Source of the DNA: Octopus vulgaris
Lineage: Eukaryota
DNA length: 64,000 nt
NCBI GenBank assembly: GCA_951406725.2
Contig: OX597823.1
Coordinates: 55,180,001 to 55,244,000, forward strand
Reading direction: 5' to 3'
In this document: positions 4,105 through 63,336 of the stretch, piece by piece
Layout: the number at the start of each line of letters is the position of its first letter
How positions within the stretch are numbered: position 1 is the stretch's first letter
The notes under the pieces: model-generated
The model's database searches: none
Told to the model about the DNA's origin: nothing
Seen by the model: only the letters and a program-made list of their open reading frames with translations
Translations under genes and position numbers: made by a program

Positions 4105-4268
4105 GGGAGAATTTACAAAATAAAACCCCAAAAGACGAAGACAGGCGTTGTAGACAACAAACAAAAGTATTCGTATAACGCTCAGGAAGTGAAAAAGTCT
4201 TTAACGTTTCGAGCCTACGCTCTGCCACAGAAAGAACACAGAAAGAAACAAGGAGAGAAAAATAAAGA
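4105..4268 (-). mobile_element. Short hammerhead-bearing repeat, family H1 (Penelope pLTR / retrozyme-like)
   Basis: Homologous to 33379-33558 and 63178-63336; shares the 3' end AATTCTCCC followed by (TA)n. Confidence 0.7.
4199..4234 (-). ncRNA. Minimal type I hammerhead-like motif (H1; core CUGUGGC)
   Basis: CUUU-CUGUGGC-A-GAGC(GUAG)GCUC-GAAA-CG-UU-AAAG; palindromic ACGU stem III. Confidence 0.6.
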
Positions 4269-4283
4269 TATATATATATATAT

Positions 4284-4687
4284 CAGGGACGTGCCGCCTG
4301 CGTGAGTAAGGTGGTTAGTGCACCTGAATAAATAGATTGATAGTAACATTTTCCTTTCATGGGAAAATATAGACCTAATTCAATAAAATTATGAAGGCAC
4401 CACGATTACTATGCAAAAAATGCAAAATACCTTTTTTTTTTTTTAAGATTAGGCAAGCATAATTCACTCCTGCCTTTCAATTTCAGTATTAAGACTACGC
4501 ATAGTACTGCTGTCGTATACGTGCTGCGTACTTTCCTGCAACAACGTTTCTTTACGCGCTATAAATGCAGAGGTAATTCTGTCTCCAACTCAGTCGCGCG
4601 CCTGCGTTTCACTTATTTTTTGCGTGTTTTTACTACATAAACATCACCAACTACCTACCTTGAGTAATTACTGACGGCACATGCCTT
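4284..4687. mobile_element. Degenerate hAT-like MITE
   Basis: Imperfect TIRs: CAGGGACGTGCCGCC versus reverse complement AAGGCATGTGCCGTC; no clear TSD. Confidence 0.35.
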
Positions 4688-5169
4688 ATAAATACATACA
4701 TACATACATACATACATACATACATATATATATATATATTCTTTACATGAACACCACCCTGTATTCAACTCCATGTCCCCCTACATGGCCTTGCTATTTG
4801 CTTTTGAGCCAAATTAACTAACTAACTAACTAACTAACTAACATATATATATATATATATATATATATATATATATCTTATGTTGTTTTGTTTGTTTTCG
4901 TCATTGTCCTGTACGTTCGGTAGCTATTCCCAGTGGCTGTTAACCACTGACACCAGCATAAGTGAATAATATCAACGTTAAAGGCACAAAAAGCCTTGTG
5001 AGTGGATTTGGTAGACGGAAACTGAAAGAAGCCCGTCGTATATATGTTTATATGCATATATATATATATATATATATATATATATATATATATATATATA
5101 TATATATATATATATATATATATATATATATATATATATATATGTATATATATGTATATATATATATAT

Positions 5170-5276
5170 AAGACAGAATGAGATAACAAATTCAAGGGTG
5201 CGAGGAGTTTTCAGGACGTTTACAATGAAATAGTCTTACATCTGTTTCTGGGATATTATGGATATCCCTTCATCAA
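5170..5276 (-). ncRNA. Short repeat with hammerhead-like motif (5233-5276), 5' arm lost
   Basis: UUGAUGA-A-GGGAUAU(CCAUA)AUAUCCC-A-GAAA-CAGAUG-UA-AGAC; flanked by (TA)n on both sides. Confidence 0.55.
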
Positions 5277-6262
5277 ATATATATATATATATATATATAT
5301 ATATACATACGATTATGAATTCGTTTTACAAGATTCCTAATGTGAAATTGTGTGTGTGTGTGTGTTGAAACAGATATTGCTGTATTTCGGGATGGTCATG
5401 TTTTCTGTTTTCGTTTTTGCTAAATAAACAAAGGCACCACACACACACACACACACACACACACACACACACACACACACACACACACACACACACACAC
5501 ACACACACACACACACACATATATACATATATATATATATATATAACTATATTCTGTGTGCTTAAGCATAAAAATTTGTTTTCACAAGTCTTTCTGTTTA
5601 TATCACTATATTATAGTATAGCGCTGAATTCGATATAATTTAAATATATATGCGCCATTTATCACTCTTTTCATCAACTGCGTATATGTATAAATGTTAT
5701 ATACAACATATTCATATGCGATAAATTTCAATTTTTAACACTTGAAATAAACAGACAATTAACAGTTCTATATCTGTACGTGTCTGCGTTTATACACATA
5801 TATGTATGCATATAGACACACACATATATATTTACTTATGTTGTTTATGTACTTACGTGTATGTTTATATAGATACATATACACATATAGATATGCATGA
5901 ATACATATGTGTGTGTTTGTGTGTATATGTATGTATATATATATATACATATATATATATACATGCATATATATATTCATATATATGTCAATACATACAC
6001 ATACACACAGATATATATATATATATATATATATATATATATATATATATATATATATATATATATATATATATATATATATATATATATATACATATAT
6101 ATATACACACACATATATATATATATATATATATATATATATTGTTATATTTCGGAATGGTCATATTGCCAGTTTAGCCAATAAAAACACACGCACTATA
6201 TATTTGGTGTTATTTTGCTTCAGTGATATTTATTTTTTACATTAATCTTAATCTTATTTCGG

Positions 6263-6302
6263 CCAAAGTTCTTTCGTCACACTCCTGTGACCGCATCAGT
6301 GG
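6263..6302 (-). ncRNA. Hammerhead-like motif (core CUGAUGC) in a repeat ending at 6141 against (TA)n
   Basis: CCA-CUGAUGC-G-GUCACA(GGAG)UGUGAC-GAAA-GAAC-UU-UGG. Confidence 0.6.
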
Positions 6303-60210: not shown

Positions 60211-60310
60211 ATTAGTACCCTTATTATTATTATTATATTTATATGATTGTATATTTCGTATTAATTGTTACCTATATGGTTTTATTTGAAATCATTATTA
60301 GGTACGCGCA

Positions 60311-60605
60311 AGGCGGCGTGCTGGTAGAATCGTTAACCGGCCAGGCAAAGCGATCATTTTGTCCGTCTATATGTTCTGAGTTCAAATTCCGCCGAGGTCA
60401 ACTTTGCCTTTCATCCTTTAGGCAACAAGAAAATAAGTACCAATGGAGCACTGAGGTTGATGTAATCAAATATCCCCCTCCACCAAAATTTCAGGTATTG
60501 TGCCTGTAGTAGAAAGGATTATTCGGTATGTGTACCAGACAAAAATGCTTCCCGGTATTTCTTCCGGCTTTACGTTCTGAGTTCAAAATCCGCCGAGGTC
60601 GACTA
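60311..60605 (+). mobile_element. SINE S1 plus a partial second copy
   Basis: S1 motifs. Confidence 0.75.
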
Positions 60606-60699
60606 TCTTTTCTGATTTTGATTTAATATAAACTATGTACTCCTAATCAGATGATAATTTAATTTACTTTAGGTTTATCCAACTAAAATATCTAAAATA

Positions 60700-63120
60700 A
60701 TGTCTTATAAGAGAAGTTCTTGGGTCACTCAAAAAAACAAAACATCTGGACGAAGAATCTCATGCAATTTCAAGACTCATATAGGAAAAGAAGAACTGTT
60801 CTTCTGGAAGAGCATTCTTTGGAAAACAACTCTAGGATACCAATGAAACTTCAAATTTTCGGTCGCTTTGAGGTACCATCAAAAGAAGGAAAGAAAGAAC
60901 AAAGGAAATTTCGAAAGGAGTAAGTTTTTTATGGCAAAAGTAATTAAATTTTCCATACTTATAAATTCAAACTTTACAAGCAAAAGTAGTAAAAGTGCTG
61001 AATACCTACGATGTGTAAAACGAGGAAAATACGATATATTGAAAGGCATTTTTGACATCACAAGGAAAAACAGTGAATCGCTGTGCAGAGTGGATATAAA
61101 GTTATATTATCTTCAAATTGAAAGCGAGGGGCAGGAACTGGAAAGGCTGCCAGTTCCAAAACTATCTATCCACCCCAAAAAAGGAAAGTGTCCTTAATGC
61201 CAACTTAACCAGAACAACTTCAGTGTCATCGTCAACGTTTGAAGCAGAGACTGAAAGTGAATATAAAGAGTCCGAAAAATTAAATGAAGAATCCACACAA
61301 ACAAGGAACCAAGTTAGTAATATCTTCCAAGCTATCAACCTCAAAATCAGGAGCGGTTTGTCGACAATTATCTCAAGATGGAATCACTGTCGATAATCTT
61401 ACCAATATGGTATTTACAGATCGACTATCAAAATAGCTGTTAAAATTTTTTAAAAAAGTAAGAAAAAATTGGTCATTGCATTTTGAGGGTAAATATATTG
61501 GCGACCAAGAATACCAAGTGCTAGTTTTAAAGTATGAACAAAAAGAATTTAAGTTAGAAGCACTCCAATTAACAAACGGAAAAGCCGATACTATTGTGAA
61601 AGGAATAACAGCTGTTTTAGATGAATACAATTTATGGAACTGTGTAAAGATGATTGTCGCTGATACAACGAGTGTAAACACTGGGAAAAGAAATGGCATT
61701 GTCACTCAGTTGCAAAGACTGTTCAAAAAGGTTTGAAAGAACCGCAATTTATTGGCTGTCAGGATCATATCCTTTATAGAGCTAATCGTGCTGTAATGGA
61801 TAACGAACTTGGAGGAAAAAGAAGTCATCTCCCGATATTGAATATACATTCATCCCAGAGCTTCTAAGTAATTACGAGAAACTCCAGGCTAACTTCAACA
61901 ATGGTGAAGAAAAGATTACTGAATCAGCAGGATGGCGAGATGACATGAAATTTCTATTTCATTTGACCAGAGTTTTTCATTTCTTTGAAAGAAACCGTAA
62001 AATGTCCTACTGTAAAGTTTCAAAAAACACCCAACTTAAATAATGCAAGATGAAATTCTCGAGCAATACTAGCTCTTTTGGCATTTATTCTTCTACCAGA
62101 GAAAATAATTTTGCTTCTCAATGTTTTTCGATTCATCTCTTACAGTTGGGCAGATTTTTGGCTTACTGACCAAATGTTCAATGCACATGATTATCAGAAG
62201 TTCACATAACTACATAGCCCACAAGTTCATATAAAAGCATTGAACTTTGTAAAAATCTTTTCGAGCCGAGGACCATCACAACTGGAAATTCCCAAAACAA
62301 ATCAGAGTGCAGAACGGGCAATCAAGTGCTTTCAAGATGTTTATGATGTTTGTAAAAAGAAGGAGACACTACAGCATCGAATTATTTTATCTAAGAAAAT
62401 ATATAAATTCTTTATTGAGTTTAAAACTACATAGCCCACAAACAGATGTATTATCAGAAGTTCACATAACTACTTTCTTTGAAAGAAACCGTCAAATTTC
62501 CTACTGTAAAGTTTCAAAAAACACCCAACTTAAATAATGCAAGATGAAATTCTCGAGCAATACTAGCTCTTTTGGCATTTATTCTTCTACCAGAGAAAAT
62601 AATTTTGCTTCTCAATGTTTTTCGATTCATCTCTTACAGTTGGGCAGATTTTTGGCTTACTGACCAAAGAAATGAACAGTTGGACTAAACCCCAATGAAA
62701 AACTCTGGTCAAATGAATTACATAGTACCCTTTTTCTTATACAGTTATTTAAAATTGGAATTAAAACTATAAAGTTAAAAATATGTAGTTTTTTTTTATT
62801 TTGTGTGGTCTTAAAAAAGCCTAGTTTCGAACCTTTGCATAGAGCAATTTCAATTCAATAATCTTTAAAACGTATAAATACATTTTTATTCCACATCTCT
62901 CTTACGTTTACAAGAAATTAGGTAGCGGAAATGCTGAAGTGCGGATCTAGTGCCAACTAGTGATTATAGTGTTAAAAGCCCATAACTCCAAAACTACTTC
63001 AACTAGGAAGCTGTAATTTCAGATATACTATTTCTGCATTGCATTAAGTCAGCACAAGTCTGGTAAAAACTTGAGCAGGCGTTATGAAGCCCACTAGAAT
63101 TTTGCATGATTTGGGTCAAA
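60700..63120 (+). mobile_element. Decayed hAT-superfamily (hATm-like) DNA transposon
   Basis: LHFEGK, MIVADTTSVNTG..G, FIGCQDHIL, WRDDM, NAR*NSRA, IPKTNQSAERAIK across frameshifts; TIRs not confirmed. Confidence 0.75.
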
Positions 63121-63177
63121 AGTGGTGATCGATTTCTTAAGTTGTGGGTGATGTGTTTTAAACAAAGCAAAATAAAT

Positions 63178-63336
63178 GTTCTCTCCTTGTTTATTTCTGT
63201 GTTCCTTCCTTTGGAAGAGCGTAGGTTCGAAACGTTAAAGACTTTTTCACTTCCCGAGCGTTAAGCTAATACATCTGTTTGTTGTCTACACCACCTGTCT
63301 TCGTCTTTTGTTGTTTTTTTTTGTGAATTCTCCCGA
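63178..63336 (+). mobile_element. Hammerhead-bearing repeat H1 (motif 63205-63240)
   Basis: CUUC-CUUUGGA-A-GAGC(GUAG)GUUC-GAAA-CG-UU-AAAG; AATTCTCCC 3' end then (TA)n. Confidence 0.7.

Follow-up and report, generated by a model that had tools for sequence, protein, structure and literature searches.

The window analyzed here, a 64,000-nt stretch of the 2.8 Gb Octopus vulgaris genome (assembly GCA_951406725.2, contig OX597823.1, positions 55,180,001 to 55,244,000, forward strand), has 36% GC, is rich in microsatellites and contains eleven hammerhead ribozyme-like motifs, all of which were confirmed at the positions and strands given in a first-pass annotation. Ten of the eleven fall in repeat families whose common form is a minimal type I hammerhead, and eight sites, from five families, represent the 3′ ends of Penelope-like elements (PLEs) with GIY-YIG proteins, tails, inversions and tandem pseudo-long terminal repeats (pLTRs). 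We are highly confident that the sites are PLE hammerheads. The guild they form is real and of a known kind, and it is the family-wide non-canonical cores, above all that of a lineage with U at core position 6 (U6), that are most worth attention.

Hammerhead families and their core forms

Families were found by genome searches with each site (family D by local BLAST combined with the pattern) and are high-copy repeats, 80–98% identical: A (sites 4199, 33431 and 63205), B (33215), D (6263), E (18634), F (52121), G (5233), H (9534) and I (57259). The hammerheads and their host elements are as follows, with open reading frame abbreviated to ORF.

4105..4258 (-), family A 3′ end, 5′-truncated; (TA)n at 4085-4098
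4199..4234 (-), family A hammerhead; U6 core plus private A9C
5171..5277 (-), family G element remnant with a (TA)n tract on either side; no partner ORF found
5233..5277 (-), family G hammerhead, truncated at the core, 5′ stem I strand lost
6142..6560 (-), 5′ limit approximate, family D 3′ end without tail; (TA)n at 6114-6141
6261..6305 (-), family D hammerhead (site 6263); C9, family-wide
6808..6889 (+), inverted D-type 3′ end with a tail of ~57 nt, abutting (TA)n at 6890
9500..9809 (-), limits approximate, family H element remnant; relatives carry a Hydra-like endonuclease end
9534..9622 (-), family H hammerhead; one extra core base, ~60-nt stem II, 9-nt near-palindrome
17151..18833 (+), family E PLE, 5′-truncated; (TA)n from 18834
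18634..18675 (+), family E hammerhead; U3-A8 core, stem III AACCGGUU, same as the family majority
25910..25947 (+), lone decayed hammerhead (site 25914); canonical CUGACGA core, resembles the A/B superfamily
33114..33310 (-), family B short element of ~200 nt between (TA)n tracts
33215..33249 (-), family B hammerhead; C4, family-wide, and a private A15.1 change
33379..33561 (+), family A 3′ end; (TA)n from 33562
33431..33466 (+), family A hammerhead; U6 core plus private A15.1U
52005..52605 (-), family F PLE with GIY-YIG end, 5′-truncated; (TA)n at 51957-52004
52121..52157 (-), family F hammerhead; U3-A8 core preceded by an extra U, 2-bp stem II broken here, stem III ACCGGU
52602..52755 (+), inverted 5′ piece of the 52005..52605 family F insertion
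57259..57300 (+), decayed hammerhead of ancient family I
63179..63336 (+), family A 3′ end; (TA)n from 63337
63205..63240 (+), family A hammerhead; U6 core plus G5U and altered stems, both private

Family G has the canonical CUGAUGA core, a 7-bp stem II and a perfect 8-nt palindromic stem III, and families E and F have a U3-A8 core, in F with an added U before it and a 2-bp stem II. A single core change marks each of families A (U6), B (C4) and D (C9), and family H combines one extra core base with a stem II of ~60 nt and a U·U at the stem II base. In family I, whose relatives were chosen by the DNA 100–200 nt downstream, CUGAUGA..GAAACAU is kept in several of 24 loci (four same-strand regular-expression matches at the motif). 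The complete fold (stem I, core, G10.1-C11.1 stem II, GAAA, palindromic stem III, UH) is present in A, B, E, F and G, the palindrome being weak in D. Because a canonical CUGANGA or U3-A8 core is found in G, E and F (here with its extra U) and apparently in I, and is lacking in A, B, D and H, the latter four are filed, as judged from their sequences, as hammerhead-like variants and not as proven members. Families A and B are homologous in sequence, with one stem I pair swapped between them (C-G versus G-C), and variation within families is mostly post-insertion noise.

Several details of the first-pass annotation needed revision. Stem III, described there as palindromic or nearly so throughout, is so in A, B, E, F and G, with self-duplexes of -8 to -11 kcal/mol in the last three, but AGAACU at site 6263 is a poor palindrome whose self-duplex comes to +1.4 kcal/mol. 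Site 9534 stands, though not as a compact motif: with a stem II of ~60 nt, some 85 nt separate the core, at 9618, from the cleavage site, and stem I of this copy reads GAUC/GAUC where the family form is GAGC/GCUC. The stem III proposed at 57259, ACAuGCUUGU, was not borne out, relatives indicating ACAUGU. That most copies carry inactivating changes is correct insofar as nine of the eleven sites show private damage relative to family or relatives, but U6, C4, C9 and U3-A8 are family states, and the cores of 18634 and 6263 agree with their family core. At site 25914 no (TA)n lies inside 400 nt, a DNA search of the genome with 25800-26080 returned only itself and hence no family, and, in comparison with five A/B-type copies, one scored above all 200 shuffles (80 versus a maximum of 73), a weak link.

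The motifs exceed chance expectation. A loose descriptor gave four matches in the window versus 0.37 ± 0.61 (maximum 2) in 100 block dinucleotide shuffles, recovering just four of the eleven sites because most window copies are decayed. In 600 kb, taken as 60 evenly spaced 10-kb pieces of the genome, a strict descriptor gave 10 matches versus 0.13 on average over 30 shuffles and none in reversed sequence, and with one core change allowed 19 versus 0.6. Strict matches occur about once per 60 kb, and five of the ten have (TA)5 within 250 nt downstream, versus 13% of all GAAA sites. Among the 150 of 355 Rfam matches listed for the window (E ≤ 10) there was no hammerhead, only microsatellite-driven miRNA matches. 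Further families, canonical and U3-A8, were seen outside the window (L234:8243, L236:4528/2315, L237:7510, L240:8363, L241:3054, L266:7317 and L277:2224).

Penelope-like host elements and their (TA)n junctions

As annotated at first, (TA)n lies 63–159 nt beyond eight of the motifs and (CA)n ~35 nt beyond that at 9534. The association extends to the genome: at loci chosen by hammerhead pattern alone, (TA)4 lies within 200–260 nt on the 3′ side in 30 of 40 A, nine of 10 B and 19 of 25 D copies, against a background of 18–22%. The distances from the A, B and D hammerheads to (TA)n cluster at fixed values, and (TA)n is frequent on the 5′ side as well (A 19/40, B 8/10). PLE ends often adjoin other PLE ends in common microsatellites (also at L012, L022 and L179); at 33114-33561, B and A ends stand back to back around one TA/GA tract.

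The GIY-YIG ORF pieces reported on the same strand upstream of 18634 and 52121 are indeed there; the former matches Pfam GIY-YIG with E=0.0025, below the curated cut-off, and the latter, with no Pfam match, is 56% identical to it over 39 codons. Within 17151..18833 the order is reverse transcriptase (RT) thumb, Cx4CxxC linker, GIY-YIG (17359-17826), 3′ untranslated region and tail, and E and F ends in general sit downstream of RT, Cx4CxxC linker and GIY-YIG, their ORFs matching RVT_1 with E=2e-7 and 3e-8, respectively. GIY-YIG-like matches were obtained at 17 of 30 E loci and at 30 of 30 F loci, the F query having overlapped the ORF end. Family A ends lie ~1 kb downstream of an RT-linker-GIY-YIG ORF different from that of E and F (Pfam GIY-YIG E=0.006), and at seven of 16 loci chosen by the A ORF start an upstream pLTR hammerhead, U6 in seven of seven, precedes the ATG by 675–765 nt. 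At D locus L402 a 1312-codon open frame lies between two pLTRs with C9 in both hammerheads; this ORF has YVDD and VYSIRC..YVG motifs, no Pfam match, and a blastp match to the A endonuclease (E=7e-8). Relatives of H retain an endonuclease C-terminus only, with a CxxC..E..N..CxH pattern. We take A, E and F to be putatively Neptune-like and D to be putatively Nematis-like, labels given from sequence motifs. Another candidate two-pLTR element, L031, was ruled out as a 99.9% local duplication.

The term "PLE derivatives" used in the first-pass annotation is overstated: A, D, E, F and H are the 3′ ends of protein-coding PLEs, and B and G alone are without a found partner. For B none was seen in 39 copies with 1.2–3 kb upstream, most copies being too short, and for G 21 copies with 1.2–3 kb upstream gave no match of their own, the single match among the 21 belonging to a neighboring F element. 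Copies of B mostly measure 200–230 nt and their 5′ ends cluster; in A, D, E and F the extent of 5′ truncation is graded, up to copies with whole ORFs. Most copies are truncated autonomous elements, not retrozymes. Inverted pairs are many among D copies and occur in E and F too; a tail is present in 14 of 30 F copies, D ends cluster at ~127 and ~184 nt, and E has two end points. Contigs of four presumed-RNA runs cover the stretch with no joints and were counted neither for nor against.

The guild as such is not novel: PLE pLTR hammerheads, solo copies numbering thousands in a genome, and targeting of (TA)n have already been described (PMC4209133, PMC8557442). Like the minimal type I hammerheads of metazoan PLE pLTRs (PMC4209133), those found here have a short stem I, an extra base after position 9, G10.1-C11.1, a palindromic stem III and a U-rich 5′ flank, and occur as thousands of solo copies in several families; the Schistosoma mansoni U3-A8 row UUGAAAAA of that set resembles E and F, but the ~60-nt stem II of H and the 2-bp stem II of F set our families apart from that set. 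As in the Neptune, Nematis and Hydra PLEs with C-terminal endonuclease (PMC8557442), RT is followed by a Cx2-5CxxC linker and GIY-YIG, targets are (TA)n, the tail is optional and insertions may be tandem or inverted, with H having the Hydra-type CxxC..E..N..CxH; the tail is 30–40 bp there versus ~57 nt in D. Non-LTR retrozymes (PMC7229834; bioRxiv 10.64898/2026.07.22.740005) likewise place type I hammerheads in noncoding PLE-derived repeats, but as tandem 170–400-nt units with canonical cores, whereas here we see dispersed truncated PLE ends on (TA)n. Copies are dispersed or in inverted pairs, and no retrozyme-type tandem arrays were seen in the window among the repeat rows listed, no genome-wide array search having been made. 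The first-pass statement that standard repeat annotation would miss the guild may be overstated, given repeats of such high copy number and identity and a curated octopus annotation that includes Penelope families (PMC13282606).

Some further features of these elements may be recorded. Many E and F copies (L036, L038, L070, L074, L082, L083, L089) end in (TC)n or (TATC)n followed by (TA)n, runs that extend the last bases of the element, maybe by slippage as reverse transcription starts. CCACGTG occurs in the tails of E (18790-18833) and F (L068), and CCACGT near the B 3′ end, a possible common signal at RT start sites. The E and F ORFs (L203:4007-5098 and L201:3044-4021) extend a long way N-terminal of RT, and a coiled, basic region is predicted in this part. 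A 382-codon open frame adjoins an E copy at L214:7500-8645 and may resemble a host glycosyltransferase-type gene.

Family-wide core changes and possible selection on the U6 lineage

The core deviations are family-wide, and they are the new element beside a guild of known kind. Across the genome the exact family A pattern has U6 in 4,889 copies and A6 in 28, few enough for back-mutation after insertion to account for them. A second A pattern, with A at the cleavage site, matches 12,407 copies, the first 100 of which (one contig) have U6 in 94, A6 in three, C6 in two and G6 in one, with position 7 being A31/U29/C26/G8; extrapolation gives a total of ~16,500 exact U6 copies. Family B numbers 6,507 copies, with C4 in 88 of the first 100, and the non-C4 copies may reflect CpG decay. 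Family D numbers 3,091, with C9 in 96 of the first 100, including both L402 pLTRs. A9 occurs in a minority subfamily of D (L195:36-111, L351), one copy with a different loop II, which suggests a later origin of C9 followed by its expansion.

In the 44 of 56 alignment rows of PMC4209133 compared, which include no cephalopod, U4, A6 and A9 are present throughout, the descriptor having fixed them, whereas U6, C4 and C9 are family-wide here. Natural core variants described elsewhere (PMC3088659, PMC7151607) resemble our families in having U4C, a change at position 6, insertions after A6 or before C3, U3-A8 or a 2-bp stem II, but they are rare single examples with tertiary contacts, unlike the states fixed here in families of thousands, and A6U and A9C are not among the variants met in the parts of these two papers compared. 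Among the literature matches listed there was no report of U6 or C9 hammerhead cores, the Lünse 2017 alignments and key supplements lying outside this comparison. Lünse, Weinberg and Breaker (2017) reportedly describe a very large number of small hammerheads in which stem III is reduced and cleavage takes place in the dimer.

We collected family A ends by downstream DNA, so that they were not chosen on the motif; 49 were found and 35 kept, the 14 left out being those that did not reach past the hammerhead. U6 is present in 34 of these 35, including all 12 from loci chosen by endonuclease DNA. On a tree built from the flanks only, position 7 needs six changes versus 19.3 with shuffled labels (P=0.0005), and since position 7 tracks the flank tree its states are inherited. 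Along this tree position 7 took all four bases and position 17 is A or U (tree signal P=0.06; no G17 subfamily), with core and stems fixed; a shared second base occurs in one of 29 constrained columns versus 35 of 128 flank columns (Fisher p=0.003). In standard hammerhead numbering these are N7 and H17, the positions that a hammerhead leaves free, and they are the two clearly changing positions of the block. Changes confined to free positions, with core and stems fixed, point to an apparently selected, probably slow, ribozyme.

Mechanism, alternatives and significance

We consider it probable that the motifs are PLE hammerheads ending on (TA)n, several of them with a family-wide core change, which are likely slow, dependent on dimers or protein, and selected. 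The GIY-YIG endonuclease would, as known PLE biology suggests, nick (TA)n, and target-primed reverse transcription would then begin close to the 3′ end of the RNA, where two alternative start sites give copies with or without a tail of 40–57 nt; RT usually stops early, so most insertions would consist of the 3′ end and hammerhead only, and inversion is likewise frequent in PLEs. The two pLTR hammerheads of a tandem transcript may pair via the palindromic stem III and cut slowly, with the protein of the element aiding cleavage. Uncut RNA being usable as template, lineages could tolerate or favor one rate-lowering change (U6, C4, C9 or an extra base), and G12, the 3-8 pair and the stems would be kept despite it. 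Natural hammerheads with U4C, A6C, A6a or pre-C3 insertions show slow but detectable cleavage, and those with U3-A8 are active (PMC3088659); the Anolis PLE hammerhead cleaves only with its protein and is dispensable for insertion in vitro (PMC11167929). On sequence grounds we slightly favor a U6 core that has retained cleavage activity, low in rate and under selection. More tentative is the broader proposal that the A6U hammerhead is a working selected ribozyme kept through a long series of Neptune-like subfamilies, and that independent PLE lineages (U6, C4, C9, extra bases) each lowered cleavage at a different, normally invariant base, offset by the protein of the element or by dimers.

A number of points weigh against this interpretation. 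The dimer stem III of A and B has just 4 bp (-1.7 kcal/mol) and that of D is unstable (+1.4 kcal/mol); a type III hammerhead mutated singly or doubly in its CUGA turn had low activity, rescued only by the C3-G8 swap (PMC9901934); A6C is ~10^5-fold slower at 0.3 mM Mg2+ in one ribozyme (PMC7151607 Table 1); and neither B (0/39) nor G yielded an ORF partner. Three of the 35 family A copies are not independent of the starting queries (window sites or repeat query match), the columns compared share one tree and so are not independent, and indel-rich T runs in the flanks inflate flank variation. Moreover, loop II and the extra A are conserved like the core (0.91–1.0), so that the 36-nt block is constrained in its entirety, for reasons that may not include catalysis. 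The variant cores may be dead, the 36-nt block being kept for RT or endonuclease protein binding or as a promoter or splice signal, and spread proceeding without cleavage, an explanation we regard as unlikely but substantial. Besides loop II, it draws on Anolis, where hammerhead mutants had no effect on insertion in vitro and no RNA ends were seen at the cut site (PMC11167929), on Naiads, which thrive without canonical hammerheads (PMC8557442), and on family D, with its near-identical copies, intact ORF and C9 in both pLTRs. The family A core also follows a long pyrimidine tract and holds the first AG, like a 3′ splice site, and a Drosophila virilis intron ends at helix I (PMC4209133). Against a dead core, subfamily changes hit just N7 (four bases) and H17 (A or U), which a protein or splice site would not obviously be expected to spare.

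Freedom at N7 could also have a coding origin, position 7 being the wobble base of a Val codon if the block is overlapped by a reading frame: one frame reads S-V-E-E-R-R-L-E-T, with N7 four-fold degenerate. In tandem copies, however, that frame stops at H17 or nine codons on and the other frames close too, the A ORF starts only 675–765 nt downstream of the hammerhead, and upstream frameshifting indels separate the subfamilies; with the frame closing at or soon after H17 we largely reject this explanation as very improbable, though a short upstream ORF might end here. Hardly better placed is the idea that the short elements are retrozyme-like units spreading via circular RNA, with (TA)n secondary. 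It would fit the clustered 5′ ends, ~200–230 nt length and absence of a found ORF in B, as well as the (TA)n common on the 5′ side of A and B. Yet head-to-tail arrays of these units are absent from the window among the 150 of 169 repeat rows listed, element ends do not match the cut site, A, D, E and F grade by 5′ truncation up to whole ORFs, and an element inserted into a TA tract would be expected to have TA to either side.

Almost all PLEs carry hammerheads, although these are slow and, in vitro, dispensable, which gives their purpose its interest. Natural cases fit for comparison occur together in the octopus genome, with canonical (G), compensated (E, F) and singly altered (A, B, D) cores, two of the altered cores belonging to young families whose ORFs are open or nearly so. 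Such cases could tell whether selection maintains cleavage, holds it at a low level, or maintains the fold only. Should U6 cut, the core consensus now accepted would have to be widened and ribozymes in animal genomes would have been undercounted, a working A6U hammerhead being invisible to CUGANGA descriptors; should it not cut, a conserved ribozyme fold would have a noncatalytic role in retrotransposition.

Unrelated to the PLEs, the window holds non-LTR reverse transcriptase fragments at 485-1645 and 39132-39923 (RVT_1 E=5e-16 and 0.002, respectively). A tandem unit of ~184 nt and dispersed copies of an abundant repeat resembling short interspersed nuclear elements occupy 15753-16206, 30122-30358, 31177-31757 and 53523-53759.

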